IMG/VR virus record: IMGVR_UViG_3300041964_000068
Coordinates: 14,515 to 78,514 of that record
Length of the DNA: 64,000 nucleotides
Reading direction: 5' to 3' (one strand)
From: a virus
Position numbers and translations under genes: made by a program. This document shows, piece by piece, positions 14,061 to 64,000 of this stretch (positions are counted from its first letter, which is position 1; every line of letters starts with the position of its first letter). The notes under the pieces are model-generated. The model did no database searches and was not told the origin of the DNA. It saw only the letters and a program-made list of their open reading frames with translations.

Positions 14061-14733
14061 ATGAATATTCTACCGATTTCTGTCGAAGAGTTTTCGATTG
14101 CAGAAATTGAGCGGTTTTGGGATAAGGTCGATCGCAGCGCGGGTGATGATGGTTGCTGGCTGTGGACGGGTAGACTTGACAGAGGTGGATACGGCTCGGT
14201 CTGGCGAGGCAGGAAAAAAAGAGCTACACCTGCACACAAATTTTCATTCACATCTTTGCGCGGAGAAGTCCCAAAAGATCTGCAAGTTCTGCATCGCTGC
14301 GATGTAAGGAATTGCGTCAATCCAAAACATCTTTTCTTGGGGACAATTGCCGACAACATGGCTGACAAAACAGCGAAAGGTCGGCAGTTGAAAGGAGAGA
14401 AGATTAAAGCTTCAAAATTAACTGAGGCTTGATGTTTTGCAAATCAAAGAATCAATGGTTTCTGTTTGTCCGAGCGAGCTAGCAAAGCGGTTCAACGTAG
14501 CTCCAAGAACCATTCGAGACATCCTCAATGGACTCACCTGGAAGCACGTTGGCGAAGACACGAAAGGCGTCGAGCGATTCAGGCTTAGGAAAAGACTGTC
14601 AGACGACGAAGTGCGGCAGCTTAGAACACTTGCCAAGCAGACTTCAACCAAAGCAGCGGCAATTGCATACGGAATTCCGTATATTTCTGCGTGGCAAATC
14701 GTGATCGGGAAAAACAGAAAGAATGTCATCTAG
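14061..14733 (+). CDS. Free-standing HNH homing endonuclease with C-terminal HTH repeats (frameshift near 14430)
   Basis: CWLWTG...GYG...AHK...VLHRCDVRNCVNPKHLFLGTIADNMAD; continues in 14437..14733. Opposite strand to the tail operon. Confidence 0.88.
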
Positions 14734-40643: not shown

Positions 40644-40964
40644 ATGAATGTTGAAGTCACGCCACGCGAAGAACTCATTATTCTCGCGCTCTACGATAAA
40701 GAACTCTACGGCCTGGAAATCTCAAAGGCCATAGAACAAGCTAGCAACGAAAAGCTTCGGATGAGCGTTGGCACACTGTACCCTCTCCTACACTCCCTTG
40801 AAGACAAAGGACTTATCAAGCCCCGATGGGGTGATGAAGGCCGGGGAGAGCGGAAAGGCGCGAGGCGTTGCTACTACAAGCTCACAGCTAGCGGCGTGGC
40901 TACCTTCGAGGCTATTCAATCCTTCCGAGCTAATCTCGTCAATTGGCAGCCAGGCGTTAGTTAG
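40644..40964 (+). CDS. PadR-family transcriptional regulator
   Basis: ELYGLEI...GTLYPLLHSLEDKGLI...W...RRCYYKLT. Confidence 0.92.
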   Translation: MNVEVTPREELIILALYDKELYGLEISKAIEQASNEKLRMSVGTLYPLLHSLEDKGLIKPRWGDEGRGERKGARRCYYKLTASGVATFEAIQSFRANLVNWQPGVS

Positions 40965-43900
40965 CTCCTCGACAACGAACCGCCGGGGCGCTTCTCCTTC
41001 TGAATGGTGGCCTGAATCTGCGATTCCATGATTTGTCTGAAGGCCGGGATATCGACACTGGATTCTTCGCCGCTGACGTTGACGGTGACGGGCACGTTGA
41101 CATCGCCGCCCCGCTTGCCGCCCGCCGCCATGCCGCTCGTTTGAATGCGAGGAGCGCTCATGCCCACTGTGCCGCCGGACTTGAAGTTTAGTACATCGTC
41201 CATCCCCAATTCGCGGTAGCGCCGTGCCTGAGCAACCGTTAGAACCTCCTCCCCCGGCGTCAAGGCAGCGAGAACCGCATTGTTCCCTTCTCGCTGCAAC
41301 GCCTCGCTAATTGCGCCGTAGCCCTTGCGATAGCTGGAGTGATTGAGCGCATCCACTTCGCCGCCTTCAGCAAACCCGCCAATCAGCGAAGCCCCGATAT
41401 TCAAAATCGTTCCCGCCAATCCTCCACCCAGGCCGCCACCGCCGCCGCCAACCGCCGCGCCCGCCGCCTGCTGTCCCGCGCCGAAGATGCCGCTCAGAAC
41501 TCCGCCGATCCCGCCGCCGCCCGCCGCTTGTTGCCCCGGCAGGCCACCGCCGCCGCCAAACAGATCCTTCAGCAAGGCGTTGACGGCAAGCTGAGCGAGT
41601 TGCGAGAGGATATTCGAGATTAGATCCTTGAACGCTTCACCCGCCGACTTGGAGCCTGTGAGGATGTCATTAAAGAACTGCCCTAGCGATTCCTGTCCGA
41701 TCGTCTCAAGCGTCTCCCCCAAGTCTTTGAATTGACTGTCGATGTTCTCCAGGTTCAGGGCATTCAGGGTTTCGGCTTCGGATCGAAGTGCTGCAATTTG
41801 CTCAGCCGAAAACTGTGTCGATTCTTCGAGCGCGTCAATGCCCGACATCTGCCGCCCGAATCGCTCGTTCTCCTGCTCAAACGCATACTGCTCTCGCACC
41901 TGCGCTGCGCCGAAGGTGTCCCGATTGTTTTCGAGATAGGTTGCCGAAGCCTCAACTGTGTCTTGCTGAAGCGTATCCTCAAGCTGTTGCCGTACTTGCT
42001 CTAGTCCGGTTTGAGCGATCCGGATTTCGATATCGCGCTGCTGAGTGAGAGCGTCAAGCTGATCGGATAAGTGCGTGGCTTCTTGTTGGGCTAAAGTTAG
42101 CTGCTCCGGGTTGAGGTTCAATCCCTGCCCGTCGATCGCCTCCATGTTGTCGCGGATTCGCTTAAGCTGCTCCTCCAGCGGGCGCATTTGCTCAGCGTAA
42201 CGATCTCCGATGCCCATGATGTCGCCACGAGTCTGAATCACCTGCACCCCAATTTCATTGCCTTCGAGTCCGGCTTGCGCGGCTCGCTCTTGCAGCATCA
42301 GGGCTGCACTTTGGCGTAAGCTCTCCGCTCGTTGAAGTGCCTGCTGCTGTGCATAGGCTTCGGTAGCGATGTCATTCTGACGGTCAAACAAGGTTTGCGC
42401 GTCGTTGAGTACACCCTGGAAGCGGTTTAGCTCGGTCTGGGTGTTGTTGATGAAGCTGTCTAGACCGGGAATAGCCGACAGCATCTCGGTCGCTTGCGCC
42501 TCGATCGTCGCCGGATCAACGCCAAGCTGAGCGGCCTGAGTGCGGAAGTCCTGTACCTGCGTCAGGATTTCGTTCTTCGCTGCTTCTGCTGCGGTAATGG
42601 CTTCTTGGGCATCGCGAACACTACGAATCAGGTCGCGGTTTTGGTCTTGGAACTGCCGCTCGCGCTGAACGCCTGCCCGGATGAACTCGGCTGACTGAGT
42701 ATCGCCCAGCATCTCCAGCGATATATCTTCCTGAGCGCGTTCGTAGTTGAGCGCTTCGTCCTGCATCTCTTCCGCCGATCGCCGCAGTGATGTCATGCGA
42801 TCCTGCACCATGCGGCGAAGGTTGGCGCTACTGGCACTGTTTTGAGCCGCTAGCCGCTGATCGTAGGACTCAAGCTGATCTGTAAGGGCTTGAGAAGCGA
42901 CACCTAAACCTTGGTTGACCTGTGTCTGTCCGAAGCGCAACCCCTGATTAACGCCAGGAGCGCCGGGGTACTGAGTCTGAGAGGCCAAGGCCGTAGTCGC
43001 GGCAGCATTTCCGGTGACGCCGCTATCCCGCAAGAACTGTTGCGCCCGTTCGTAATGATCGCCCGATTGAAATTTGGGTGCAGCATTGCGTACCGTAGTA
43101 CCGTTGGAGTCTCTTCTGTTCCAGTAACGCTCTGAGCGTTGCCCGCTAGCACCGCTGAGTAGGCGTGTCGGATGTCGTGTTGTCCGGGTTGGAATCCTCG
43201 ATCTTGCAGGTAGCGCTCAATCGCGGGCATTTGCTCTGCGATTGACTGATTCCGGCGAATGCCGTAGCGCTGCTGATTGTCCGGCGAAAACTGAATCAAG
43301 CCTTGGTAATCGTTGCCGTCACCGCCCATTACGTTCGGGTTGAATGATCCGCCCGACTCCCAACTCATCAAAGCGGCAAACTGATCGACAGGTAAGCCAA
43401 GGCGCTGAGCAGCCCCCGCCATCGCTGCGGCTCCGGCAGGGTCAGACCGCACTCGTTCGGCGCGGCTGAGTGTCCCGCCGCGAGGCACGTAGCGCTGTCC
43501 TGTTGGTTGAGGCGCGGCTTGAGCGGGTCTAGCAGCTTGCGCGGGAGCAGGCGCAGGCGCAGGTGCAGGAGCTTGCTGAATCGCCTGATTGAAATTAGGC
43601 GCTCCTCTTGCCAGTTCTCGTGCGGTTCGATCGCGCATTCCCAGCGCGGCACGGTTTGTTCTACGGCTATCCGGTGCAAAGAAATCCAGCGAAACGTGCG
43701 CCCCGGTTGTCGATCCGGTTCGCCCCTGCGTACCCAACACCGTGCCGACACCGACTTGTTGACCCACCTGCACGGCAACCCGATCGAGGTGAGCGTAGAG
43801 CATATCAACAAACTCCCCCGTCACCTCATCACGAGCGCGTACAATCACCTGATTGCCGTAGCCTCTGCGTCCGGTGTTGCGGCCTCCCCGCCCCATATTG

Positions 43901-46900
43901 TTTTCCCAGTTCTGATCCGTCACGGTGCGAACCACCGTACCCGCCGCCACCGCGCCGAACTCTGCTCCCCTCCTGCCGTCTGCTACCACATAATCGAGGC
44001 CAGGTTCACCGCTTGCGTCCACTGCTGACGTGACGTGAATCCCCTCAAAGCGGGTCGTTCGCCCTGCCGCCGCCGCTGCGCCCGCTAGAGGAGCGCCCGT
44101 TGCTGGCTGTAAACCGCTGAGAAGCTGTTGCGCCTGCATTGCGGTGTCCGCAAACTGATTGTTCGCCGCGAGGCGATTGCGCTGTGCTTCAAGCAGGTTC
44201 TTCAGCGGCTCAAATAGCTGCTCGACGAGTTCGGTCATGCCGGAAACAAACTCGCCAAAGTATTTATTACCGATTCCGGTAAGGTTCGTGCTGAGCCTTG
44301 TTCGCGCCTGCATCATGACGCGATCGAGGTCGGATTCCTTGATCGACATCGCCACGTCTTGAGCGTTGCGTTCAATGCCCCGGTAGAAGTCGGCTACCTG
44401 AGTCGAGACTTCTTTAAGCTGCTGCTGAGCGTCTACTTGAGCTTGGGCGATTTCACCTTGCAGCGAGGTTACATCAATTTGGCGCTGAGAAAGCTGCTCC
44501 TGAATGTCAGCCGCAATCAAAAGCTGATCCTTCAGATCTCCGTCCGGCCTTGCGGGGTCGTTGGCGTAGGCGCGAATTTGTGCGGCTCCCGTCCCCGGCG
44601 CAATCTCAGCCGTCCTGAGTGCGTTTTGCAGTTCAGCGTTCAGCAGTTGATTTTGCAGCCGCGAAATCTCTTGCTGACTAGCTTGAATCTGTGCGTTCAA
44701 GCGTTCCTGATTCGCTCGGTTCTGACGGTCGCCTGCCTGTACTGTGTTCAGTCCTCCAGCCGCTTGCTGTTGCAAGATTTCGGTTTGGTTGGCGGCGGCT
44801 TCTTGCTGTAGGCGAGTGTTCGTGTCAGCGGTAACCGCTTTATTTGTTCGTACTCTTGAGTGAGCCGCTGAACGCTTGTAACCGACTGCTGAATCAGCTT
44901 GTTTAGGTTCGCCTGTCCTTCCTCAGACGCACCGATCAGATTGTTGACCTGTTCAAGCTGCCGAATTAACGCCTCTTTGTTCTCTGCGTTCTCAGGCGTA
45001 TCGAATGCCCCTGAACCCAGATCGGCCTCAAGCTGGTCACGAATTTGTTTGAAGCTTTCCAGGTTGGCGGAAACAAGCGCCTGCACTTCCGCGATCGGAC
45101 GGCTCGCCGTTTCTCGCGCCTGCACCAGATCGTTGCGCTGAGCTTCAAGCTGTCGGCGCATATCGGTATCAGCGGGCGATAGCGCTTGTCGCTGAAGCGA
45201 ATTCTGGCGTAGTTGAGCATCAATGCGATTAAGGTCTTGGATTTGAGTACCGCCGCGCCCGCCCGCGCCCAGCATCCCGTAAAGACGGCTGAGGGATTCG
45301 TTTCCGCCTGTAATCGCGTTGCCCGACTGAATGATCCGATCTTCGGCTTGTTTCTGCGCGTAGGTTCTCAGAGGAGTTTGCAGCCTTCGCTCTCCCTCTC
45401 CGAGTACCCCTATCCGGCGCAGCCCCGCATCCGCCAATCCACCGAGCGGATCTGACTGAATTCCGCGCTCAATCATACGCGACAACCCCGCCCCGGCCTC
45501 GTCACCCAGCAGCGCCTTGAAGATCCCGCCCGCTGCTGTTTCCTCCATCATCGAAGGAGCTTTGATCGAAGCTAGCGCGTCTTTCGCGTCAGTGAGTGAC
45601 TTGACAAAGCGGTTCGTTTGCTCGGTGCTTTCGCCAACGCTTTCTTTGTAGCGATCGAGGCGTCCATTAATATCAGTCGCCGCCTGTCCAATTGCGCCGG
45701 AAGAATCAGAAATCCCGGTCTTGAATATATGGAACAGGTTGAAGATGGCGGTGATGACAGCGAATTCCAGCGCGACCCGCTTCAGCATCGTCAGCAGTCG
45801 GCCTAGAATTGCCGGAATCTTTGCAAACGCCGCTCCTACCAGTTCGGCAACTGCCGGAATCCCCATCAACATCCCGATTAGCTGAGCGAAGCCCTTGACC
45901 ATGTTGCGAACAATCGCAAAGGTGAGCAGCCCCAATGCCTGGTTGAGGATGTCGGCGTTCTCTCTCACGACCGACATTGCTTCCGCCATCGCATTAAAGC
46001 CCAGGTTGCGAACAGGGAGCGCTAAATCCCCGATCGATTCCTGCAACAGCAAAATTTCGTTGTTAAGGCGATTGGTTGCAGACTGAGCCGTATTCGCTGA
46101 CCCCGCTAATCCTACCGAGGTTTCCGCCGAAAGCTGCTGTGCGAAGCGAGGAATGAACTCCTCTGCTGTCACCTCGCCGCTTTCGACCCGCTTCGAGAAT
46201 TCTTGAGGAGACATCCCGTAGGATCTTGCCGCAACCCCGATCGACGAAGGCAGCGCTTCAGCGAGTTGTCCGCGCAATTCTTCGAGGCTTAGCTGTGACT
46301 TGTCGATCATCTGCTGAAGCGCAACATAAGCATTTTGCTGTCGCTCAGGAGAGACGCCATAAACAGCAGAAGCTTGGTTGACGGCTCCGAAAAGCTGTCG
46401 AATCGATTCTCCTTCGAGGCTAGTTCCTTGCGCTGACGCACCTAGACCCGCGAAACCCTGCAAGTTGGTTTCGATATTGGTTCCCAGGTCAGTAGATTGA
46501 TTTTTGACAAGCGCGATATTTTGAGCGGCTTCGGCGCTGGAGCTACTGGTGAATTTGATCGCCTGTTCCATGCTCTCAAACCGCATCGCCACTTCCATCG
46601 AAGCGGTGATGAACTGATCGAGCAACATCAAAATCGGCTTCAGGACAAGCTCGAAGGAGACAAATCCAACCGCCAAGTTTGTAATCAGGCGCGTGTTCTT
46701 GAGGATGCCGTCTGCGATTCCGGCGAACGCCCGCCCAACCTTGGGCGCAAACGTCGCCATCTCTTTCATCGCATCGAGTGAATCCAGCATGAACGAGATG
46801 CTGCCGCCGATGATCGGGATATTTTCTAGCGGATGCTGAGTGCTGACCTCGAATTCTTGGAACTCACCCAGGTCTTTGCCGAGTTCTTTCAGGCGAGACT

Positions 46901-49900
46901 GAAAAGCTTTCGCGTAAGTAGAAGCTTGTTCCTTCGCCGCCTGCATAATATTTTGCGGGGACAAGCTTTGAATAAGCTGTTTCGCGCCTGCAAACATACT
47001 TGCTCGCGGCGGCGAAGCCATCTTCTCATTGTTAAACGGCTCCAGCCCCGCCCCTTCAAATTCTTGGGGGGAGACGGGATGATTACTGGTTCGCCGCTGT
47101 CCCAAGAACCCAAAGAAACGCTCATGAAAGTCAGGCCGACCCAGATACTCCGACAGCTTGTGATTTTGGCCTGCGCCCGACAGCATTTGCAAGGCGGGAT
47201 CGGGTCTACCAAACTTGCGTACCATTGGGGCGAGCAAGTCCCCTTCTCCCAAGAAAGCTCGAAACTTCTCAGGATCGCTCCCCATCAGGCCGAAGGTTGG
47301 AGTCCCAATTCCAACCGCCTTCGACTCTACCCCCATATGTTGAAGAATTTGCTGAGACTCGCGAGCGACATATCCCCCGGCACTGTAGCCCGCAAAATTA
47401 ACCGGGAGTCCGGTCTGTCGATGTCTCGCAAGACCAACGGCGGCAGCTTCGATCGCGTCGGGGTTGAACGCCTCTAGAACGTTGTGCCTGAACGCTTTGC
47501 CGATTACTTCTGCGATGAATTTCCGCTTTTTCGCGAATGAAACGCTCGTGTCAGTGGCGACATTCTCGATATGTTCGATCAAGAAGTCAGTTCCCGCCAG
47601 CTTGCCGATGCGCTCCGCGACCGACTTTCCGGTTTTCCCGCGCTGCCCTGCGAATCCGCCGGAAACCACCATGATCGACTTCGCTTGACTGGAGTAATCC
47701 CCCATTTGCTTGCCAAGCTCGTTCGCCCGCTTCATCACCATCTCAGCAGATTTCTTTAGCTGAGCCTGCTGCCGTGCCTTCAGCGCCTCGATCGGAGACA
47801 TCATCTTGACGATGTTTTGCAGCCCCGATGAAATGCTGCTGTAGGCGGAAGCAACCGAGCGTTGAGCGGCCTTGGCGGAATTGGCGATCAGTTCCGCTCC
47901 CAACATTCGCGGATCAATTGCGCCCGCCTCGTCGCCATTCAATCCGCCTGGTTTTCTTCTCGCCGCCAGCATTCCGATGAAGCGCTGCTTGAACGAAGCA
48001 TTCCCGCGCAGTGATTGCTCTTGCTGGTAGATTCGCTCTGTGACAGCGCGAGGCTGATTTTCCGGCTTCGGGGAAGTCCACTCTCGCTTAAGCGAGTTCT
48101 CAATTTTGGTGAATTGACCTTTTGCAGCACGAGCAATCGGAGCCTCAAGCCCCTGCTCGATCGCAATTTCGAGCATTGCCCGCCCTTCGGCAATGCCTTC
48201 GATAATTTCTTTGCCGACCGCTTCCGCCTCTCCGGTGAGGCCGTCTGCAATTAACGACTTGAGTCGATCGACCTTGCCTTTAATCTGCCCGCTACGTTCT
48301 CGAACGATGCGGCGAAGCGATTCGGCGTCAGGGTTGGCTGAGGCAGGCGCGAGTCCTGGTGTTTGAGCCTGTAGCCTCGTGAGCCTTTGCGATTCCCGAT
48401 AGGCCGCTTCCGCCTCGGTGATTTGCTTCTTGGGGATGACGGGCGCGGCGGTGGCTGGCGAGGTGGGGGGAGTGGGGGGTTTCTCGATTGACTCGATCGA
48501 GACGGGCATTGCCCCAGGTACACCAAATACTGACTGCAAATTAGCCAGCAGTTGATTTTTAACGATCTTGTAAACTCGCTCTTGATCGGCGTCAGTGAAT
48601 CCAATCGTTTTCTCGCCTTCACCCGCATACTTCGCCCCGAACGGCTCCAGTACACCCTCGACCGCCGACCCGCCCAGCGTCGTATTGACAGCGGCAAGGT
48701 ACTGATATTGTTGTGGGTGAAAAGGAATGGCGGAGTTGTCGAACTGCGGGGCAACCCCAAAGATTTTTTGCAGACTCGCATGAGCCTTGTCGATCTTGGC
48801 GATGTCGATTCGATCTGATCCCTGCAAAGCATCAACGATGTCTTGCATGATCTGCTTGAACGCCTTGCCTTCTTCTAGGGCTTTGCCCTTAATGCGCTTA
48901 CTGACCTCGAATTCTGAAGCGGCATATTCTAGATCGGCCTTCTCCTGAGATTCCCCGTAGGTTTTTCTCAGCTTGCCGTCCTCTGTGACAAAGGCATACT
49001 TCCCGGCCTGTAACTCTGATTGTGCCTGAGTATCCCCCTTCAATACGCCCAGCGTTCGCGTCACTGATTCAAACTGCCCGTACATATCGGCGTACATCTT
49101 GAACGCCGCAGTACCTTCCTTGCCTTGAAACTCTTTCGCAACCGGAGAGGTATGAGTCCCCAGGAATTTGACCAACTCAGCCTGAGTACCCGGATCAGCC
49201 ATGAACTGACCCAGGTGATGCGCGACACCTGCGCCGGGGATTACTGCTGTGTTGCGGCTGGGAGCGAGCAATCCAGTCAGGGCGTCAGCGCCCAGCGGTA
49301 GCTGCTTCAGCGACTCGTCAAGAATTTTTAGCTGGGCTTTGCTGAGCTTTGAGCGATCGATATGCTTCGTTCCGAACGAAGCCATGTACATCGGATCTTG
49401 ATCGCCCACGAACGCCTGAAAGTTTTTAGCGCTGGCGGTCTGGGTTAGCCCGTACAGCCCCAATGTCGCGCCGAATCCCTTCGTGTTGGTCGCGCCACCT
49501 CGTTCCGCAATAGCTGTCGCTTCTTCGGCGGCAACCGTTCCGCCGGACGTACCCGCGAAAACGAATTTCTTTTCTGGGTATTTTTTCTCGTAGGCGAGAC
49601 GAGTTGCCTCTAGCTTAATCGCATCGGGGTTATAGCCGGATTCCACCGCCAAGTTCAGAAGCCGATCGATCGGCATCGCCTTGACATCTTCTTCCTTAAG
49701 CTCCTGCCCTGTCACCTTAGCGGCGAGTTCAGCCAGTCCTTTGCGAAAGGCGTATAGACCGCCTAGCTCGTCAGAATTGGAGTAGGCGTTCGGAACCGGA
49801 ATGGTTGCAGTCTTCTCACCCAGAACGTTCTTGAGGACGTTGCGAGCAAAGTAAGTATTTCGACCTCCTTCTTGAAAATCCACGCCGCCCGACATCAGGG

Positions 49901-51099
49901 CAATCGTCTTGATGTCGTCAGGATTTTCGAGGTCAGGAACTTCAATCTGCTCGGATAGCTGTTTCGCTAGCTCCATTGACTGAGCCAGCATCACCCGCTT
50001 GCGAATCCGAAAGGGCTGAGCGCCCGCCCTTAAGCCGACCCCCGCCATCCGCAAGCCCGCTTCTTTGACGCCTTCTACAGAAGGTTCAAAATACTGCCCA
50101 ATTTTCTCTCTAGCGCGATCGGGTCTGTTGTAGACGTGCAGATCTTCGAGGCTGGAAACGAGGGTGTCTTCAAACTTTTTGATCCCTCTGACAAACTTGC
50201 GCGGATTCAGGAAATCATCAACCGCTTTTTGAACGCGCTGAAAATCTTTCGCAACATCGCGCAATCCGCCGCGATAGCCGAGTGCCGCCGCGCCTACCTC
50301 TCCGAATCCCTGAGCGCGACCATAGCCCCAACGAGCCGTTGAACGCCCTACTCCGTAGAAGCTTTGGCCTGATTTTTTCTCAACATAATCCCCCATCCCT
50401 TTCGCAAAGTCGAAAGAGAAGTGAGTCCCCACCCCTTCAATGAATCCCGTAGTCAGGCCGTCAAAGATTCGACCCGGAACCCCCATGATTTTATCAAGCA
50501 GAGATTCTTTGCTTGAAGTGTGAATGATGCGGCTAATTTTTACCGAATCTTCACTTGAGGATTTCTTGTTGTCTTTAAGCTGCTGGAGAACGGCTTCAAG
50601 CCGATCGACTACCTCCCCGTTGCCGAGTGGAGCTTGTTGCGGCTGTGTAATCGGTTCAGCATAGTAGGCGGGTTCGGGCACTCGGAACGGTGAGGAACGA
50701 GTACGCTGCTGAAGCTCAATATTCTGATAGCAAGACGATCAAGCTCGCTACTGTCGATTTTCAGCGAGATTCCTTCTCTTGACTTGGCTTCAAACCGATC
50801 GTATTCAAGGCTGGCCTGGTCAAGCTCGCGATTGTCAACCTTTGGGCGAAGCGGCTTCGCGGCGAATAGATTATTCACCTGATTGAAGTGCTTCGCCTTT
50901 AGGTCAAGGTGCTTGTTGAGGTTGGTCAGCGCTCGATCGTCAACCGTTGGCGTGAGGTTTAGTCCCCCGGTACGCTTGAAGCTATTCTCAATCTCGTCCC
51001 TACTTGTAAAGCACTACGCCGCGCTTGTTCCAGGTTTATATAAAAGCTGGAGGCGTCTAAACCGAGTTCGAGGACTAATTTGCCCAGGTCAACCGACAT
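40961..51099 (-). CDS. Giant tape measure protein (~3,400 aa when joined) with two alpha/beta-hydrolase, one degenerate M23 and one lysozyme-like domain; at least 4 frameshifts
   Basis: Start MSVDLGKLVLELGLD at 51099; tape-measure repeat ALQQMIDKSQLSLEELRGQLAEALP; C-terminus IQKEKRPGGSL. Fragments 50609..50878, 44748..50681, 42904..44775 and 40961..43033 abut. Confidence 0.9.
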
Positions 51100-51121
51100 A
51101 CTGCTTTACTCCCAAGGCAAA

Positions 51122-51850
51122 TTAATACTTCCAGTACCGCCGCGCCCCCAGTCAATGTGATAGAAATGCTTGCCAGGGGTGGGGTAGCCGAGGCCAATTC
51201 CACCCGCCGAGCTTCCCTTGATCACCCGTAGCAGATCACCAAAGTTGCCGTTGAGCGGATAGGTGTCGAGCGCCCCTGCTTTAGGGTGAAAAGCTGTTCG
51301 GCCTGCCGCCGATCTTGCGATTCAAGGCCGGAGGTCGAAAGGCCGAAGTCACCGCCAAGGCCGAGCCGAATTCCTGCCGAATTTCGCCAAAAATCTTCGC
51401 GATTTTCAGCATATTTTCGATTTGCTGCTCGGTTTCAGGGATGCGAGTACCGCCATGCGTGAACTCAGCGAAGGTGAGATAGCTGTTGGGGAGAATCCAC
51501 TCGTTCAGGTGCTTCTCTCCCAGCTTCGGCAAGCGAATCGTCTCGCCTGTTTTCGAGCCTGCTTGAGGCATCGGTTTCAGGTCAGGATTGAACTTCTGCT
51601 CGGTGACAGGCTGAGGGCGATCGAGGGTGGCTAGCATCTCAATCGTCTGAGCGCCCAGCTTCGTCGGATGCTCAAGATAGACAGCTTCCTTGAAAGTCGC
51701 TAGCGCCTTGAGAGCGCTATCGCCTGCGACCCCGTTTACTTGGTCAAGAGCGAGATAGCCGCCGATCGACAGCATTGATTCAACCCATTGAATCGTTGAG
51801 GCGGGGCACTTGGTCAACTCGGTGGGAGTTAGGATTACGGGTTTTTGCAT
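51122..51850 (-). CDS. Endolysin-like peptidase M15 with PG-binding-like N-terminus (frameshifted near 51290 and 51148)
   Basis: VTSAFRPPALNRKIGG; after the shift NSFH...ALD...GIGLGY...FYHID. Confidence 0.85.
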
Positions 51851-53187
51851 AGCTCATTAATCTCCTCGTCTAGTAAGCGAAACGCGCCAATCACATGAAC
51901 CGGAACGAGGCCGTTGCCCCTGAGCTTCGTGTAAGTCTCTGCCGTGTAGCGGGAAATTCTCGCCTTATCCTTGGATTCAGTCGAAAACGGCAGTAGATCC
52001 TCCCAGTTCATCGCTTTATGCTTTTCCTCTTTTGATAGGAAGCTGTTGAACAAGGCTGACCAACCAATTGCATGAATACGGGTATCAAGGTTGGCCTGCT
52101 CTCTCTGCCGTTTTTCCTGAAACTGAATCATCTCGAAGATCAAGCCAATGGGGCAGTCTCCAAAGTTGTCGGCATGAAAGATGGGGTCGGTGATGCCGTA
52201 GGACTGGATTCGGGCGTAATATTCTCCCCCACTCGATAACGGGGCTGTTGGCGAAGGATTCAAGCTCAGCGGTTTCTCGCTCGAAGTCTCCGCTGCGGGG
52301 GACTTTCCCTCAGCTTCAGCTTCGTCTTCGCCCGCCGCCATACCCAGTTCAGACTGATAGAAGCGGTAGATCGCGTCGATCTGCGGATCTTCGAGTTCGT
52401 CTGTGTCGCTCATCGTCCAGCCCGACTGATCTTCTAGCCAAGACATCAACCGTTGGGCGATTTTCTGAGATTCGTTCCCGTCATAGCCGTACTGCGACAG
52501 ATGACCTGCAAACTCCCGCGCATGATCCATCGAAAGCGTCGGGTTGCGGCTCTCGGTCATGCCGACTTTCTCTTTCCCGGTGTACGGGTCAATCAGGAAG
52601 CCCACGTCTTCAGCGTTAAGCAACTGCGGCAGGGGACGAGTGTAAATCCGCTCATCGCCAATCTCAGCAGGCTCCGTCACGTCGATGCGGTGCTGCCCGA
52701 ACTTAATCACATCTCCGATCGCCAGCGGGAAACGCAACGGCTCAACTGAAATATCGCTAGCTTTCGCGGAAGCTGTTTCGGTGACGGTGACGGCGTAGCC
52801 GAGGCGATGCCGGATGAACAGCGTAGCGGCTTTTTTCTTGGCGCTGCTGGAGGCGGCGAGGGTGTAATACTCCTCTTTTTCCTGCGTCGAAAGCCAGTCT
52901 TCCATCTCCTCTTGAGCCAAGATCTGAACCCCTTCAACCATGCGGGGCGAGAGCCTTGCGACCGCTTCTTTGAAGTCGATGGCCTTGCTTTGAGCGAGGC
53001 GTTTGCCCGCCGTCCGCATCAACACGATTAGCCGTGCCGTGCGCCGATCGGCCTCCTGCAAGTCGGTGGGGTTTTCTTTGGCGACAATCACGCCCCGCTT
53101 CAGCAGGTAGATGATGCCGATCTCTTCGTCGCCAATCGGGACGAACTTGGTAGCAGCGGACTTTCCGAACAGGTTGAATTTTTTCAT
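51835..53187 (-). CDS. Tail assembly chaperone G/GT with -1 slippery site GGGAAAG
   Basis: Between tail tube and TMP; G GGA AAG (Gly-Lys) at 52309-52303, the lambda G-T heptamer. Confidence 0.78.
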   Translation of the reverse strand: MKKFNLFGKSAATKFVPIGDEEIGIIYLLKRGVIVAKENPTDLQEADRRTARLIVLMRTAGKRLAQSKAIDFKEAVARLSPRMVEGVQILAQEEMEDWLSTQEKEEYYTLAASSSAKKKAATLFIRHRLGYAVTVTETASAKASDISVEPLRFPLAIGDVIKFGQHRIDVTEPAEIGDERIYTRPLPQLLNAEDVGFLIDPYTGKEKVGMTESRNPTLSMDHAREFAGHLSQYGYDGNESQKIAQRLMSWLEDQSGWTMSDTDELEDPQIDAIYRFYQSELGMAAGEDEAEAEGKSPAAETSSEKPLSLNPSPTAPLSSGGEYYARIQSYGITDPIFHADNFGDCPIGLIFEMIQFQEKRQREQANLDTRIHAIGWSALFNSFLSKEEKHKAMNWEDLLPFSTESKDKARISRYTAETYTKLRGNGLVPVHVIGAFRLLDEEINELCKNP

Positions 53188-53535: not shown

Positions 53536-53789
53536 AGTCTTAGGTCAAACTCCAGATCGTCGTTTTTTGAGAACAGAACAGTGGCGGTTTCAACTTGGCG
53601 GACGCTGGGGGAAATCTTGATCTCTCCGATCAAGCGGCCTAGCGGGTCATAAACTTTCACCCATTCAGCCAGCCCCCCCTGCAAATACGCCAACCCCGTA
53701 AGAATCCGGGGTTTGGCGATTTCAGCCTCTACGTCACAGCCCACGAGGTAAATCTGAGCGGCTTCAGAAGCCACGTAATCAAGCTGCAT
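53523..53789 (-). CDS. Small virion-module hypothetical protein
   Basis: TAATG overlap with the tail tube gene. Confidence 0.6.
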   Translation of the reverse strand: MQLDYVASEAAQIYLVGCDVEAEIAKPRILTGLAYLQGGLAEWVKVYDPLGRLIGEIKISPSVRQVETATVLFSKNDDLEFDLRLCPK

Positions 53790-54709
53790 TAGAAGAAGCG
53801 GAAGGTACTGGGGACGTAAACGTAGGTTGCGCCCTGTACCTGGAAGGTGGCCTGCACCATGCGTTTGTCCTGCAATTCCCCGGATTCGGGGCCAGCAGTA
53901 ACAATCGCCACACCTTCGTGACGCTCGCCGTCAGGCATTCTCACGCGGAAGTAAAGCTCTCGGTTGTACTGCGAGTTGTCGCGAAGAATCGAGAGGATTT
54001 CATCACCGCCCAAGTCACCCGCAATCTGCTCAAAACTCACGGTCATGGTCTGAGACACGCCCGTAATCGCCTGCTCTTTACCGATACCGGAAAGCAAGGT
54101 CGTGGTTTCAATCACCTTGGGTTCAGGAGACGGAACCGGGAACGAAGTACAACCGACCACCGCGAATAGGGCTTCAGTCGTTGCGGTAGTGTTTGGTGCA
54201 ATTATCGCTGTCAGAGGGGAAACCCGAAGCTGGGTAGCGCCTTGAGGAGAGCGACCGGAAACGATGACGGTCTGAGCGCCAAAGGCTAAGCGCGTCCCCA
54301 CGTCGATCGTCGTCGGCAGCGCAGAGACGGGAAGAAGGGTCGAGCCGAGCGACAGAGCGCCGGGGTTGTAGGTGAGAACCGTGCCCGACGAGAGCGAGAA
54401 GTTGAGGGGGAAGATCGTCAGCGAAGTCGCTCCAGAGGCCGCTGCCGCTGACAGCACGACCGCCGCGCTACCCAAGGTGAGAATCGTACCCGAAGCATAG
54501 GCCGCGCCCGTCGCGCCAACGGTGAGCGTCGTTGCGCCGATCGCGGCGTCCGCGCCCAGGGTGATGTTTGCAGCCGAACCTACAGGCGTAACTGCCGTGA
54601 GGGTGTAGGTCAGCGGAGAACGAACCCCCAGCGGCAAGCGCCGAACCGATAGCTCGGTGTTGGTTGTGACCTTTACCTGACCGGGATAGTTGAGAACAGT
54701 GTTTGACAT
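53789..54709 (-). CDS. Major tail tube protein with inserted beta-rich repeats
   Basis: C-terminal ETTTL...LYFRVRMPDG...G.AIVT...ATFQVQG is tail-tube-like; GATxLxV repeats. Confidence 0.75.
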   Translation of the reverse strand: MSNTVLNYPGQVKVTTNTELSVRRLPLGVRSPLTYTLTAVTPVGSAANITLGADAAIGATTLTVGATGAAYASGTILTLGSAAVVLSAAAASGATSLTIFPLNFSLSSGTVLTYNPGALSLGSTLLPVSALPTTIDVGTRLAFGAQTVIVSGRSPQGATQLRVSPLTAIIAPNTTATTEALFAVVGCTSFPVPSPEPKVIETTTLLSGIGKEQAITGVSQTMTVSFEQIAGDLGGDEILSILRDNSQYNRELYFRVRMPDGERHEGVAIVTAGPESGELQDKRMVQATFQVQGATYVYVPSTFRFF

Positions 54710-57212: not shown

Positions 57213-59045
57213 TTAGACTTCAGCGCGAAGGTTGCGGAATTGGATAACCCGAAGCTGCTCGCCAGTACCCGCCGTGTTTTTCACGTCAAGGCGACCGCTG
57301 TTCTCGTGCGAAGTCCAGATCATGCGGGCGCGACGACCGAAGTCGCTCATCTCGTCAAGCCGCACTTCGGGAGCCATCCCGGTACACCAGCAGATCGTGT
57401 CGCGACCGAAAGCGAAGTTCGTGTCGCAGGTTTGAGCGCCGACGCCCGTTCCAAACGTGACGGTTTGCGTTCCGGTTTCGCCGGGAGCGCCCACGCCGTA
57501 AACGTTCTGCTCGAACAGGTGGAACCCATGCCACAAACCGCGATAGCCTGACACCGTGCCGCCGTAATCGTTGCCCGTAGACATCGAGAGCATGGAGGTG
57601 ACGATGTTGTAGTCCGGCTCGATCGTCTTGGTGTTTTGAGTCACCATGAATTGAGCAAGCGAGGTCGGATTAACAATCAGGCCATAGTGCCCGTCCATGT
57701 AGGGCGGAATTTGCAGCGTCTTCATGTACGCCCGCAAGTTGATCAAGAACGTATCGGTGAGTGTTCCTTTGCTACCTGTGACCACATCAGCCGGAGCAGT
57801 TGTAACTCGATCGCCGTTGTTGTAGACGATGCGATCTGTCTCGAACCATCTGGTGTAGAGGTAGAGATCCTTGGTGGCCTGATAGTCACGCCCCAAATTG
57901 CGCTCAATGATTGCCTCCAGGTTCACTAAGCTGTATGCCTGAATGAACGTTGAAAAGCCGAGCGGTGCGTTCGTAGCATCACGACCCAAGCCGAGTTCAA
58001 GCAGCGTGACCGTCGCGTCGAGTTCTGCGACCGGATTGCTGACGGTAACAATGTCTGTTCCCGGCGTTAGCTGGCGATCGGTGAGCGCGGACGGACGAGC
58101 CATGTAGGGGTAGCGAGGCACGGCAATGTTGAGGCCGGGGCGACGACCGAGTTCAACCGCAGTATTAGCGAACTGCCAGTGAATCAAGTCGGGATAGTGC
58201 GACTCGCGAATAAAGGCGCTGAGGTACTGAAAGGCAACGCTCGGAATATCGGAGGCAAGGGTAATCGCCTGAGTATCCGGCGTTCCAAATCCGCCCCGTA
58301 GAAAGCCCTTTTCTTTGAGCGTGGCCTCTAAACCTTCGCGGATTGATTTTTGATTGCGACGAAAATACTCGTCGATCTTGCGCGTGTCCATCTGAGTCGC
58401 CGTTCCCAGCTTGTCAGATGCGACAAGCTGTTTCGGAGCCGAATCGATCAAGTTTTGGAAGTGGCGCATTTCCGCTGAGCCTTCACCCAGAACGGTAAGC
58501 TGCTGTTGAGCCTGACCGCCGCGAGGTTGCCAAGCCGATTCAAGTTGAGTGGTTCTCGACTGAGCTTGAGTAAGCTCTTGTTGAGTCTGGGTAAGCTGCT
58601 GCTGTACTTGCTGTACTTGCGCCTGCGCTTCGGCCTGGGCTTGTGCCTGAGCTTCGGCGGTTTGAGCCTGATAGCGCGATTCAAGACCTTGGACGGCTGA
58701 CTGCACCGAAGATTGAATCAGCATTTGAAGCTGTTCGGGAGACATTGCAACCACCGGAGCCGCAGCAGGCGCAGGCGTGACAGGTGCAGGAGCGGGAGCA
58801 GGCGCTTCCGGCGTGGGTGCTTCAGTTTCCGCTGAGCTTAGCGATCGAACGCCATTAGTAAGAGCGGGGGACGATGCGGCATCGCGAATGCTCTGAGTCG
58901 CGGCGGTGTCTTTCGCGCCAAACCCCAGCCGTTGTAGCTTGGCCTCCGTCGCCTGACGAATCGCATCTGCTTCGCCTACGGGCTTGCTTGACGCCGAATA
59001 TACTTGGACTGCTGGCTTACGCTTATCTGTAGTCCGCTTTGACAT
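57213..59045 (-). CDS. Major capsid protein with long N-terminal scaffold-like extension
   Basis: Pro/Ala linker and Gln-rich coiled coil, then HK97-like motifs (YGLIVNPTSLAQF, GLWHGFHLFE, FAFGRD, DFGR); upstream of the adaptor genes. Confidence 0.85.
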   Translation of the reverse strand: MSKRTTDKRKPAVQVYSASSKPVGEADAIRQATEAKLQRLGFGAKDTAATQSIRDAASSPALTNGVRSLSSAETEAPTPEAPAPAPAPVTPAPAAAPVVAMSPEQLQMLIQSSVQSAVQGLESRYQAQTAEAQAQAQAEAQAQVQQVQQQLTQTQQELTQAQSRTTQLESAWQPRGGQAQQQLTVLGEGSAEMRHFQNLIDSAPKQLVASDKLGTATQMDTRKIDEYFRRNQKSIREGLEATLKEKGFLRGGFGTPDTQAITLASDIPSVAFQYLSAFIRESHYPDLIHWQFANTAVELGRRPGLNIAVPRYPYMARPSALTDRQLTPGTDIVTVSNPVAELDATVTLLELGLGRDATNAPLGFSTFIQAYSLVNLEAIIERNLGRDYQATKDLYLYTRWFETDRIVYNNGDRVTTAPADVVTGSKGTLTDTFLINLRAYMKTLQIPPYMDGHYGLIVNPTSLAQFMVTQNTKTIEPDYNIVTSMLSMSTGNDYGGTVSGYRGLWHGFHLFEQNVYGVGAPGETGTQTVTFGTGVGAQTCDTNFAFGRDTICWCTGMAPEVRLDEMSDFGRRARMIWTSHENSGRLDVKNTAGTGEQLRVIQFRNLRAEV

Positions 59046-59481: not shown

Positions 59482-60200
59482 TTAACCCTCAAGTCCGCGC
59501 GCTCCCGGCAGTCCCGGTGCAACTACGGCGCTGAGTCGATAAAGTCCTTGAATTCCGTGCTTGATGTAGTACGGCGCGATTAATTTTTGGATTTCATGGT
59601 TATCTACGCCACAAAACCAACTCAAGAACGGGAAGGCATGATGTGTAGGGCATGGTCATCGCTAAAGCCGACATACTCACCTTGCGAATCCGTGCAGGTT
59701 GGGCAAAACGTACCCGTCACGACATCATGCAACTGTCGAGCAGCGTCGAATCCGGTTGAACGTCACAGCTTCGACGAAAGCTGAGCCCGCTTGATGCGCG
59801 GTTTCGAGAGTCATAATCATGCCGCCGTTACCGTACGGCGCAAGATATCAATTGTTCTCGACATAGCTACCCGCCGAAGCCCAGACGATCGGGTCAAAGT
59901 CAGAGCCTCCCGCAGTCAGAACAGCGAGATTCGACCTCGACGATGTGCGCCTCGTGCATGTAGCCGTGTGACGCACCCACTTCATCCCAATTGTGATCGA
60001 CGCAAAACGGGATTATCCCGGAGCCATATACGCCATCTCCATCACCGCTCAGGACTCCAGCACCCGCCGCCGTGCTGCATGAGGGAGTGAGACGCTAGCC
60101 AGGATCGTGACGAGTTCGTTGGATTGATAGTTATCCATGCCCTCGGCTTGTAGCGATTAATCATGGCAAGCTGCCTTCACTCGCGGCGTCCCCATTCTCC
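59482..60200 (-). CDS. Error-ridden remnant of a probable prohead protease gene
   Basis: Reverse-strand fragments VDHNWDEVGASHG, FCPTC and IAPYYIKHG...LSAVVAPGLPGA; position upstream of the capsid gene. Confidence 0.4.
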
Positions 60201-60299
60201 AGTTCAACTCGCGGCCTGTCGTGCGGGCGATCGACTGTCAACCTGCGGAAGAAGCTCTCTTCGGGACGGAGAGGTTGAGCTTGCTTTCAACTGGGGCGT

Positions 60300-63200
60300 G
60301 ACGCTGAAGGGACGGCTTAAGAGACATGGGGGGAGAACTCACCCCGCCGCCCTACCCGCCCCCATTGCCCCCCCCGCCCCTGGCCTGCCTCCACCGCCGG
60401 CCCCGTGCCCAGCGCACCGGGACGCAGACCCCCTCGCCTCATTACCCCCTTCGCCGGCCCATCGGCCCCAAGTCCGCCGCTGGCACCCGGGCACTCCGGC
60501 CGCCCCCACCGCGACCCAATCCCCCCCCCACTAAGGGCGGTGCCTACAGCAAAGCACAGGAACAACCACACCATACAAAGACAGCGAAAACCGCAGCGCC
60601 AATACACGGCAGAACACACAGTCCAGCCGGTGACAAACGAACAAGACAAACACCAAAAAACCAGCCACGCAGCCAACAAGGGAAACCAGAGCATGACACA
60701 GAGACCCATTTTATAACCTGCAAACCCAAAACGCAGCACTTAGCACGGGGACCACAGTGCCGCCAACCACCGCGGAAAGCCGCAGCCACGGGCCGCATAA
60801 AGTCAGATGCCACGAGTGCCACAGTCACACACCCAATATAGGCACCCCTGGTTAAAGGAAGAAGGCCCACCCCCGAGCCCAAGCGACAGAAAGACCACGC
60901 CACCAGGGAGGACAATGAGGAGGAGCTCGCGGGAGAGACTAGCAGCCCGGACAGCGCCAGCACAGGGCAACCGCCAGGGGGCCGCGAGCTACCCACACCA
61001 CGGCAGAGCAACCGCCCACCGCCGCCGCGACCGGCCCGCTGATATGCAAGACGCAGCATCCAGCAAGCCGGCCACTATTGGGGCATCCAGCACGCTCCGC
61101 CCACCTCATCACAAACCACAGGAAGACACCCGGTAAGCAAACGTCCCCAGCCCCACAAATACGACGCCCCGATAAAAGACAGCCAACCCAACGCAGACAC
61201 ACACAAAAGAGGACGGAACCAGCAAGGAGGGGAACACCGTAACCAGCACCAACTGAGAGTGACAGAGGGAGAGCCAAAGTAACAGCAGTAACGACCGCAC
61301 GCCATCACCCAGGGGAGCCCGGACACCTAAGACAACATAACAAAGACGAAGGAGAGCGCAAACCCCCTCAACGACCACCGGTAGCAACAAGCAACGCACA
61401 GAGTAAAGAACAAACAGCCAACACCCAGCACAACACGTTACAGAATAAGCCACGGAGGGCAAAGCACTACAGCCAGCCCCCCATAGTCGAACCACCCGCA
61501 GAACATAGCCGCCCAAAGCGCACCCCCCGCCCTGCCCCAGTCCTCCCCTCCAGAGACTCTTTCCGCACACCCATTCCCACAACCCATCCCCCCGTCAGAG
61601 CACCCCGCCCGGGCCGGTCACCCCCCTCCCCTCTAACACAGCACCACTCCTCTCGCTAACAGCACTGGGAGCGCCAACACACACGCACAGCCCAAGAACC
61701 TAGACTAACAGTAGCGATCAGAAACACCACATGTGCGGAGATCGCTCACAGCACAATAGCAGAGAGCAAAGATCCCCCCAAACCAACCAGAAGCAGCAGC
61801 AGGGCAACACAGGTAGAGCAGTAGCACGCGGGTCATAGCACGTGGCCAACCATACATTCGATAACCGCAGACGAGACATAAGACGTAGAACAGCACGCCA
61901 AGCGCCCCCCAAGACCGCAGCCCCGCAGGGCCTGGCCAGTAGGCAACACAGCCAACCCCCGACAAGCCGAGCCCCCCAACAACTCACGACACACCAGCAC
62001 AGCTCCCCTCGCTCCTGCTAATCCAGTCAGGGAGCAGCAGGCCCGGGCCACTTACACAACACAGAGACTATACGCAGACAGCCGGAACCCCGCGGTGTGA
62101 AGTCATGCCCCCCCCGACCAACACCAGGAATAGAAGTCCGCCCCACAGCGAAACCAACAACAATAGGACCCACCACAAGACAGACCGCAGGGCAGTAGCA
62201 TCGCCGGACCCATGGCAAGAGCGAACAACAGTAGAGGACACAAACGCAACCAGCATGAAACCAGACAAAAAGAAAACACAACACCCCGCAGGAACAAACA
62301 AGACAACCTGAGTCAGCCACACACTACATTGATAACAATAGACACACAAACACATGGGAGACAGAACACGACGAATAAGCCTCAGCAACATCATAGCGGC
62401 AGCCAGCGAGAAACCAAACAAGCAGCAGCCCGACACCAGAACAACTACAGAAGGACAGGAAATGACCAGAACAAAATATATCCCACAGCACAAGCAAGAA
62501 ACGGGGAAGGATCAAATGACAAAAAGCGCCGGCCGCAGAAACAACTACACCTAAGCGACCATCATGACATATTCTCACCCCTTCCCACGACGGAGCACCC
62601 GCACTTACGGGTCAATAACCCCAAGCGGACAAAACATCAGGCCAAAGAAAACAACAACAGACCACACCAATAAGAAGATGAAAAAGTAAAACAGATCCAC
62701 CACAAGCCAGAGGCACCAGACAGTTTAAGACCCCCAAGCAACCAAGCAACAAAACAGCCGAATCCACCATAGCGAACACAGGGGACAAGAAACAAGCGCA
62801 GAGGGACAAGCATCATAGAGACGCCACAGACCCACGGAGAAAACAGGACCACGCCCCCCCCCCCTTGCCGGCCCCCCGTAACTACCTCCACCCGACCGCT
62901 CGCGGCACCGCGAGCCGGACTCCTCGCTCGGCCCGGCACCCCCAGAGCCCTCCTACGACCCCCAGCCACCCCTACGAGAACCACCACCCACGCCCCACAA
63001 AAGCAACCTGATGCCCGAGCCGAACCCGCACGAACAGCACCCCCCAACAAACGGATAACACGCACAGACAGAAACCCGCGGAAGCCACCACTATTCGAAA
63101 TCGCCACCGAAAGCCACGACAAATAACGAGAACAACCCACCACACTACTCCCCCCACCCCCCCCCGCACCCCCCCAGCAAGGGCACAGCGCCACCGACAG

Positions 63201-64000
63201 CAGCAGAGACACTAGGAGAGCGACACACAAACCCCGAGGCCAAGACACCTCCCGGATCCCCCCGCCCTAAGCCCCAACCGCTAACGCAAAATCAGCAGCA
63301 ACCCGCCACACACCGCCGCCCCGCAAGCCTAAGCCACCGGACAGGACCCTCTACACAACCAACACAAGTACGAAAAGCCAGAAAAACCAACCCGCACACG
63401 ATCCCAGCAGACGCCAGGAAAACCCACCCCAGCAAACCCCCAAGCACCGCCAACCCAGCCCCTCCACCGTCGGCCCACGCCGCAATAGTCAACGCTCCGC
63501 CCGGCCCCATCGCCCACCCTAGACGGGTTCTACAATCATCCCCGAGCACTACAACCCAACTACGCACAACCCCCACCCCGGGCCATGAGCCCCCCACCCG
63601 TCATCCCCATGGCAGACAACAGGACACGCCCCATCCAGACCGCACACCGCCCGACCCGGCCCCCGGCCAGCGCCAGCTCCGCCCCACCCCCTCCCCCGCC
63701 CGCCACGCCCGACGGCCAGGGACACCCCCGAGCTTCGGCCCCCCCCGCGCCAGGAGCTCGGGTCGGCCCCGGCCAGGCCTGGCCCGGCCCCGCGAACTCC
63801 GCGCTCCCATATCCGCGATGTCTCCCGGCCCACCCCGCACCTCGCAGGCGTATTGTTCCTACGCCCCCAGCGGCGCCTTCCGGCCTGCCTGCGCGAGTCC
63901 CCCGCCGGGCGCCCCCCGCCCGCTGCGACGTTCCCGACGACAACGGCTGACCCATCGCCTCCAGCCGCAACCTCGCGGCCAGCCCAAACAGGCAGCTAAA
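60300..64000. other. Low-quality / artefactual sequence (C/A-rich, T-depleted, long C runs)
   Basis: Abrupt composition change, loss of CGATCG, only low-complexity ORFs; preceded by rising error density. Confidence 0.85.

Follow-up and report, generated by a model that had tools for sequence, protein, structure and literature searches.

The tape measure gene of a virus in IMG/VR encodes, ahead of the usual tape measure core, two domains that are predicted to be α/β-hydrolases with a canonical Ser-Asp-His triad. The sequence analysed here (the window) is a 64,000-nt stretch, positions 14,515 to 78,514, of the 78.5-kb virus record IMGVR_UViG_3300041964_000068. Its minus strand contains an open reading frame (ORF) of 1,977 residues at 44748-50681, which proved to be one piece of a longer gene, that for a tape measure protein (TMP) of 3,380 residues in a cyanophage of the siphovirus type. 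We propose, with a probability of about 0.5, that the two domains are virion-delivered serine esterases or lipases acting on the host envelope or membranes at entry. They lie in the window as follows.

49152..49961, minus strand: hydrolase domain 1, long form (ORF residues 241-510; residues 381-650 of the 3,380-aa protein)
49545..49547, minus strand: nucleophile Ser of domain 1 (AGTSGG), codon read; Asp at 49395-49397 and His at 49218-49220
47052..47741, minus strand: hydrolase domain 2, short form (ORF residues 981-1210; residues ~1126-1336 of the 3,380-aa protein)
47382..47384, minus strand: nucleophile Ser of domain 2 (AGYSAG), codon read; Asp at 47238-47240 and His at 47160-47162

The initial annotation, made from the sequence alone, had described the two segments as internal paralogues with a triad in canonical order and had quoted ten motifs for them. 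All ten were found in the translation where it had placed them, and the six catalytic codons were read directly. In domain 1, MSGG, NPDAI, AGTSGG, VGDQD, and GAGVAHHL span ORF residues 263-490 (window 49895-49212); in domain 2, VSGG(F), NPDAI, AGYSAG, LGEGD, and GAGQNHKL span ORF residues 1006-1176 (window 47666-47154). Domain 1 has a helical insertion of ~45 aa between the Asp and the His, which is absent from domain 2. Segment 1 matched segment 2 in BLASTP (E = 1e-6, 28% identity over 137 aa), and this match, together with the domain-core tree described below, bore out the paralogy. The invariant columns in an alignment of four sequences (both copies and two relatives) were SGG, NPDAI, FAGxSxG, AFxGxxD, and GxGxxHxL. 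In the alignment of domain 1, G25, G26, S139, G141, D189, and H248 were invariant.

The fold of both segments was examined with AlphaFold2 models, Foldseek, and VIA-align, using whole short proteins in the alignments for the structure work. The model of domain 1 had a predicted local distance difference test score (pLDDT) of 79.7 and a predicted template modelling score (pTM) of 0.81, with a deeper alignment than that of domain 2, for which the values were 66.9 and 0.69. In VIA-align, the top 50 neighbours of domain 1 were all α/β-hydrolases (Z 13.7-11.0, 160-190 residues, root-mean-square deviation 3-4 Å), and Z was 12.7-10.5 for domain 2. In Foldseek against the pdb set, nearly all listed top matches of domain 1 were α/β-hydrolases, with a probability of 1.00 for the best-ranked ones. 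For domain 2, the 48 listed top matches were without exception α/β-hydrolases (best E = 3.4e-5; the probability was below 1.00 for one of them only). Cutinases, APT1, and a lid-less serine hydrolase made up the main part, and dienelactone hydrolases also occurred. The top 50 structural neighbours of each domain consisted of esterases, lipases, thioesterases, and other α/β-hydrolases, and none was named a peptidase. Sequence identity to these neighbours was 9-19%, and the two domains and their profile gave no significant sequence match among PDB chains.

The triad residues occupied equivalent positions in the two models. In domain 1, the Ser lies between strand 132-138 and helix 141-154, the Asp after strand 181-186, and the His after strand 238-241; in domain 2, the Ser lies between strand 114-119 and helix 122-135, the Asp after strand 160-165, and the His after strand 184-187. 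In both, the SGG motif follows the first strand and the His follows the last strand, so that Ser, Asp, and His take the canonical post-β5, post-β7, and post-β8 positions. As far as predicted structures go, these results showed that both domains are α/β-hydrolases with a canonical nucleophile elbow and triad placement, as the initial annotation had read from the motifs.

We assigned the domains to the α/β-hydrolases because of the predicted structure together with sub-threshold Pfam matches, which all fell in families of the α/β-hydrolase clan for the window's domains, the alignment members, and the relatives. Domain 2 matched Thioesterase (PF00975) at 19.2 bits against a threshold of 26.4, in the elbow region only, and the relative P0136 matched it at 28.1 bits over 38 residues. 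Domain 2 also matched T6SS_Tle1-like (PF09994) at 12.2 bits (E = 0.11), short of the threshold of 27. Cutinase (PF01083) gave no match to the window's domains at E ≤ 10, and the relatives P0130, P0136, and P0111 reached 21.7-22.4 bits against a threshold of 25.9. Other sub-threshold matches were to Abhydrolase_3 in one other alignment member and to Cutinase, LIP, PGAP1, and DUF915 in relatives. Searches of the ESM Atlas yielded unnamed clusters with weak hints of DUF900, Abhydrolase_8, and Thioesterase, which serve as leads only. The domains are therefore filed only under the α/β-hydrolase superfamily (Pfam clan CL0028), as a family without a Pfam model.

The gene that contains these domains was reconstructed from the record, its relatives, and metagenome contigs. 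Its other features are listed below.

40961..51099, minus strand: whole tape measure gene, one 3,380-aa ORF after adding four single missing bases
43134, 44841, 50730, and 50995: single-base gaps in the record, each coinciding with a frame switch
46617-46679, minus strand: second hydrophobic, transmembrane-like segment (Kyte-Doolittle, 19-residue window >1.6)
46035..46598, minus strand: TMP_3 / tape_meas_nterm domain (PF20155, E = 9.3e-21, 74.9 bits against a cut-off of 41)
45720..45893, minus strand: hydrophobic, transmembrane-like segments of the core (Kyte-Doolittle, 19-residue window >1.6)
43684..43974, minus strand: Peptidase M23 domain, C-terminal part of the TMP (PF01551, E = 9.1e-10, 39 bits against 28.7)
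43135..43443, minus strand: SLT-like lytic transglycosylase region (PF01464, E = 0.014, sub-threshold; phrog_21656 and phrog_4928 match)

Homologues of 3,000-3,250 aa, which carry the name 'tape measure protein' in cyanobacterial metagenome-assembled genomes (MAGs), were colinear with the window from 51099 to 41069 over five stretches in frames -3, -2, -1, -3, and -2. At the four frame switches, contigs from biocrust metagenome runs (X1, X3, and X4) of two studies added +A, +A, +A, and +T; their coverage of the gene was patchy, and the uncovered parts are uninformative. The gene thus appears split because the record lacks four single bases. The corrected reading is an open frame of 3,382 codons, in which the ORF itself takes up 3,380; it starts with an ATG at 51099, checked in the sequence and preceded by GGGAG, and stops at 40961. 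The overlapping ORF pairs 11277-12749/12704-13870 and 20224-20772/20654-21115, elsewhere in the window, may be similarly frame-broken.

The two hydrolase segments and the TMP_3 domain share one frame, with no frame break between them. Moreover, both copies were present in single open frames of 3,626-5,087 aa in four relatives (five records, as one Leptolyngbya provirus is represented twice). Among these are the provirus of Leptolyngbya sp. PCC 7375 and a complete virus of 139 kb that has terminal repeats. Because the segments are in frame with TMP_3 and intact in the relatives, they do not form a separate gene, a possibility that the initial annotation had left to polishing of the sequence, and they belong to the TMP as it had supposed. 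Its recognition of the ORF as a TMP also held, but the 1,977-aa ORF is only the middle piece of the 3,380-aa gene.

PF20155 matched residues 1362-1549 of the 1,977-aa ORF. The same ORF reached 38.9 bits with TIGR02675 (cut-off 21.35) and matched 14 PHROG tape measure families. TMP_3 / tape_meas_nterm is the usual N-terminal domain of TMPs, and here ~1,500 residues precede it. The M23 and SLT-like regions are encoded by what appear as downstream ORFs in the uncorrected record; the SLT-like region is 66-71% identical to its counterpart in relatives (tblastn, 70.7% to P0003), and the downstream part of the TMP also has a weak lambda-type C-terminal match. The gene lies in a tail-module setting: an ORF at 53789-54709 weakly matches major tail protein PHROGs (E ~1e-4), two small ORFs come next, and the TMP comes after them.

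To describe the family, we searched 1.84 billion cluster representatives (50% identity) with a profile at a cut-off of E ≤ 1e-3. This search yielded 311 proteins or clusters, mostly of 2,000-6,800 aa. The named members are 'tape measure (domain-containing) protein', all from Cyanobacteria, and the short representatives are fragments on tiny contigs. A TMP_3-like region was present in 90 of the 95 family proteins of at least 2,000 aa, and the hydrolase stretch was N-terminal of this region in 144/144 cases. M23-like or SLT-like regions were found in 34 of 84 long members, and so the hydrolase domain is not strictly tied to wall hydrolases.

Conservation was assessed over 250 domain stretches, one to four per protein, from a set of 154 proteins that comprised cluster representatives at 50% identity and close relatives. 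The elbow Ser was conserved in 218 of 223 aligned copies and its flanking Gly residues in 209 and 220 of the same 223; the Asp was conserved in 161/163. The His was conserved in 60/61, a count that covers HMMER-aligned copies only, some short-form copies being left unaligned there. The spacing from Ser to Asp was 48-50 residues in 136/162 copies, and a G-x(1-3)-H motif followed the Asp in 117/162, against ~54 expected by shuffling. The triad that the models place in canonical order is thus nearly invariant in the family alignment.

In the domain-core tree, copy 1 of the window grouped with copy 1 of the relatives (distance 0.19-0.5) and copy 2 with copy 2 (0.65-0.85), and copies 1 and 2 were separated by 2.06 substitutions per site. 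The duplication is therefore old, and both copies have been retained. Identity to the closest relatives was 51-55% in the region of domain 1, 40-43% in domain 2, and 29-35% in the core; judged by sequence identity, no part of the protein is better conserved than the hydrolase regions.

When viral contigs were scanned with domain 1 or with the alignment, three close relatives and nothing further came up, and a single-sequence scan of these contigs with domain 2 gave no match. A scan of genome contigs found two loci, one in Leptolyngbya PCC 7375 and one in a cyanobacterial MAG. The window region 41200-51150 was present, at shares of 0.30-0.52, in biocrust metagenome runs from a 2017 and a 2021 study. 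This result suggests that the host of the phage is a soil-crust cyanobacterium.

Among 50,697 phage records, the only match was the Aphanizomenon siphovirus vB_AphaS-CL131 (MG209611), found by tblastn with domain 2; tblastn with domain 1 gave no match among the cultured phages. CL131 gp047 has one copy of the domain, and gp048 has two good copies and one degenerate copy, with GHSAG elbows. The third copy in gp048 (residues ~1642-1720; MG209611 10588-16023) lacks the nucleophile Ser (AHGYGG) and keeps the Asp region. Both proteins are annotated as hypothetical, and their genes lie immediately upstream of gp049, the tape measure gene. In a viral structure library, the best matches of the domain 1 model were likewise gp047 and gp048, followed by a 'tape measure domain protein'. 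The CL131 tail genes showed no tblastn similarity to the window outside the hydrolase domains, and the TMP_3-like profile had no match in gp049; CL131 is therefore a distant carrier of the domains and not a close relative.

The length of a siphovirus tail corresponds to ~0.15 nm per TMP residue. At this rate, gp049 alone (2,131 aa) would give 320 nm, which fits the CL131 tail of 361 nm (PMC6293099). In LC-MS/MS of CsCl-purified CL131 virions, ORF_047 was detected at 38% coverage, ORF_048 (gp048, 1,811 aa) at 54.6% with 105 peptides, and ORF_049 (gp049) at 37.9% (PMC6293099, supplementary Table 5). The original paper left gp047 and gp048 unannotated, and the domain was not recognised (PMC6293099). 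The hydrolase module is thus a virion component but, because gp049 alone fits the tail length, probably not part of the ruler.

Taken together, ~1,500 residues that hold two anciently duplicated, minimal α/β-hydrolases have been added ahead of a normal tape measure core. In each domain, a G-x-S-x-G elbow is followed after 48-50 residues by an Asp and then by a His, and copy 1 has a helical, cap-like insertion. The domains may be active serine carboxylesterases or lipases that leave the virion with the TMP at infection. If ejection proceeds as in lambda and T5, the C-terminus, which bears M23 and SLT, would come out first and the N-terminal module last. The targets might be ester-linked constituents of the cyanobacterium's envelope or membranes, for instance the acyl chains on lipids, lipopolysaccharide (LPS), or lipoproteins, or O-acyl groups of glycans, and their cleavage would help the channel and the DNA to cross. 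If three TMP chains are present, as in lambda and T5, six folded domains of 25-30 kDa would exceed the tail lumen of ~4 nm. We therefore assume either that the domains travel unfolded and regain their fold once ejected, as has been proposed for T7 gp16, or that they sit at the neck or head end. In support of work at the envelope, M23 and SLT-like wall hydrolases and hydrophobic segments are present in the same polypeptide. The interpretation in the initial annotation, that the ejected TMP hydrolyses lipid or ester-linked envelope components or processes itself during DNA entry, is partly supported: the fold, the paralogy, the triad, and the place in the TMP agree with it, and the substrate, the timing, and self-processing are conjectural.

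A more specific version of this proposal is tentative, and we put it somewhat short of even odds. The first ~1,500 residues, with the copies at ~381-1336, would form a distinct ejected enzyme module that is fused to the TMP in most lineages and free-standing in CL131. It would deliver into the host a capped and an open serine esterase or phospholipase that have diverged in function, refold after passage through the tail, and constitute a new α/β-hydrolase family.

Several points weigh against the proposal of envelope-directed esterases or lipases. The domains are at the N-terminal end of the TMP, which is expected to be farthest from the tail tip and is an odd place for an envelope-breaching enzyme. 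In CL131, the proteins with the domains are separate from the TMP, and gp049 alone fits the tail length. The structural neighbours form a mixed group, all at equal distance, of thioesterases, cutinases, lipases, dienelactone hydrolases, and feruloyl esterases. No Pfam family reaches its threshold on the two domains of the window, and therefore no subfamily, hence no substrate class, can be assigned. Confidence in the model of domain 2 is only moderate (pLDDT 66.9).

The first alternative to be weighed is that the domains reach the cytoplasm or the inner or thylakoid membrane as an ejected effector (a deacylase, thioesterase, or phospholipase for takeover or counter-defence), delivered last, just before the DNA. 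The module is always N-terminal of the tape measure core (144/144) and is separable from the ruler in CL131, the structural neighbours include acyl-protein thioesterases and Legionella effectors, and there is the weak match to the Tle1-like phospholipases. However, nothing indicates that the N-termini of siphovirus TMPs arrive in the cytoplasm folded and active, no signal points to a particular cytoplasmic target, and M23 and SLT in the same protein favour work at the envelope. We consider such an effector unlikely, though it deserves to be kept in mind. It is improbable that the domains are instead α/β-hydrolase-fold serine peptidases that process the TMP or other tail proteins during assembly or ejection. 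The S9 and S33 peptidase families share the α/β-hydrolase triad and fold, the TMPs of lambda and T5 undergo proteolytic processing, and the occurrence of the CL131 module as separate gp047 and gp048 could mirror a natural cleavage boundary. On the other hand, these minimal domains have neither the propeller nor the large cap that such peptidases usually possess, and gp048 (1,811 aa), recovered from virions with 54.6% coverage, shows retention and gives no sign of processing. Since no peptidase is named among the top 50 structural neighbours of either domain, self-processing is disfavoured.

Catalytically dead modules that keep an ancestral fold and serve as structure or spacer, for instance as a plug or an assembly handle, are very unlikely. 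Degenerate copies do exist, as the gp048 copy without the Ser illustrates, and globular domains in a TMP could serve packing or chaperone binding. However, Ser, Asp, and His are retained in 98-99% of the aligned copies from proteins less than 50% identical, both copies are conserved as orthologues over a long divergence, and no other parts of the protein are as conserved as these domains. Finally, the four frame breaks within the tape measure gene might suggest that a neighbouring gene was joined to it by assembly or indel errors, or that the gene is a decaying pseudogene. This explanation is scarcely credible: the two domains are joined to the TMP_3 domain without a break, all four missing bases are present in independent contigs of two studies and restore one 3,380-aa ORF, and the relatives hold both copies in uninterrupted frames of 3,626-5,087 aa. 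We therefore rejected the pseudogene and mis-join readings.

The proposed entry esterases can be compared with several known systems. TMPs are known to carry peptidoglycan-cutting domains, such as M23 and SLT in T5 pb2 and the Rpf-like motifs in mycobacteriophage TM4. These resemble the present case in that an enzyme is built into the ruler, is carried by the virion, and is thought to act on the envelope, and this TMP itself has M23 and SLT-like domains like the T5 pb2-type TMPs. However, the enzymes of the T5 pb2 and TM4 type cut peptidoglycan and are usually located in the middle or at the C-terminus, whereas those described here are serine α/β-hydrolases that occur in duplicate and in every case precede the tape measure domain on its N-terminal side. 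CL131 gp047 and gp048 belong to the same domain family but are separate proteins, whereas here the domains are fused to the TMP. T7 gp16, with its N-terminal lytic transglycosylase, is also a large ejected virion protein with an enzyme too big for the channel when folded; this enzyme domain must travel unfolded and then refold. Unlike the present TMP, gp16 is a capsid-stored podovirus protein with peptidoglycan as its substrate, and it has no homology to these domains.

Other likenesses concern the enzyme itself. Lysin B of mycobacteriophages, a cutinase-like mycolylarabinogalactan esterase, is a minimal α/β-hydrolase of a phage with a GxSxG triad that cleaves an envelope ester, and LysB models in BFVD matched the domain marginally (E 0.05-0.07). 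It is, however, a soluble enzyme of the lysis cassette that works from inside the cell when infection ends, whereas these domains are inside the tape measure gene. The Tle lipases of the type VI secretion system (T6SS; Tle1, PF09994) are GxSxG α/β-hydrolases that a phage-tail-like machine delivers to hydrolyse membrane lipids of the envelope, but they are cargo of contractile systems and not part of a TMP, and the match here was sub-threshold only. In size (~190-230 aa), sheet order, and triad placement, the domains resembled minimal lid-less α/β-hydrolases, namely cutinases (PF01083), XCC1541 (2qjw), XC6422 (2fuk), and acyl-protein thioesterases (Z 12-13.7, Foldseek E ~3e-5). Unlike these, the present domains have their own NPD motif before the elbow helix and their own SGG motif in the oxyanion region. 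In the literature covered, outside of which most subscription journals lie, no TMP with an esterase, lipase, cutinase, or α/β-hydrolase domain was found, in agreement with the initial annotation, which knew of no esterase domains as a standard feature of TMPs.

Other features were observed near the TMP gene and elsewhere in the window. Immediately upstream of the gene, a 189-aa ORF (51281-51850, minus strand) matched Peptidase_M15_3 (32.2 bits against 23.2) and an endolysin PHROG, and it represents a third type of wall hydrolase in the tail module. Between this M15 gene and putative tail chaperone-sized ORFs lies a 450-aa ORF (51835-53187, minus strand) with no Pfam or PHROG match. At the equivalent position, CL131 has gp045, an abundant virion protein of 453 aa with 123 peptide-spectrum matches (PMC6293099); the 450-aa ORF showed no tblastn similarity to gp045. 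A 610-aa ORF (57213-59045, minus strand) is rich in Ala, Gln, and Pro in its N-terminal part, which a large C-terminal domain follows; its sole match was a weak one to a PHROG tape measure family via the repetitive part, and it could be a capsid or scaffold fusion. At the end of the window (60000-64000), strand asymmetry was extreme: GC skew was -0.23 to -0.35 and AT skew +0.49 to +0.60, with a GC content of 61%; the ORFs there all resemble low-complexity nonsense, and no tandem repeats were found. The contig may thus end in foreign sequence or in an artefact of assembly.

With 311 clusters at 50% identity, the family is a large one, and it has neither a Pfam family nor a published description that we found, and its domains are a potential source of small, lid-less serine hydrolases. 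Since a member is present in the cultured phage CL131, for which a virion proteome is published, the idea is directly testable. The way in which siphoviruses get through the thick and multilayered cyanobacterial envelope, particularly that of filamentous hosts, is poorly understood. A conserved enzyme of esterase or lipase type in a TMP would add a new chemical activity to the tools with which phages cross the envelope. If the more specific version of our proposal is true, cleavage of lipid or acyl esters would be an unrecognised step in envelope crossing by cyanobacterial siphoviruses.

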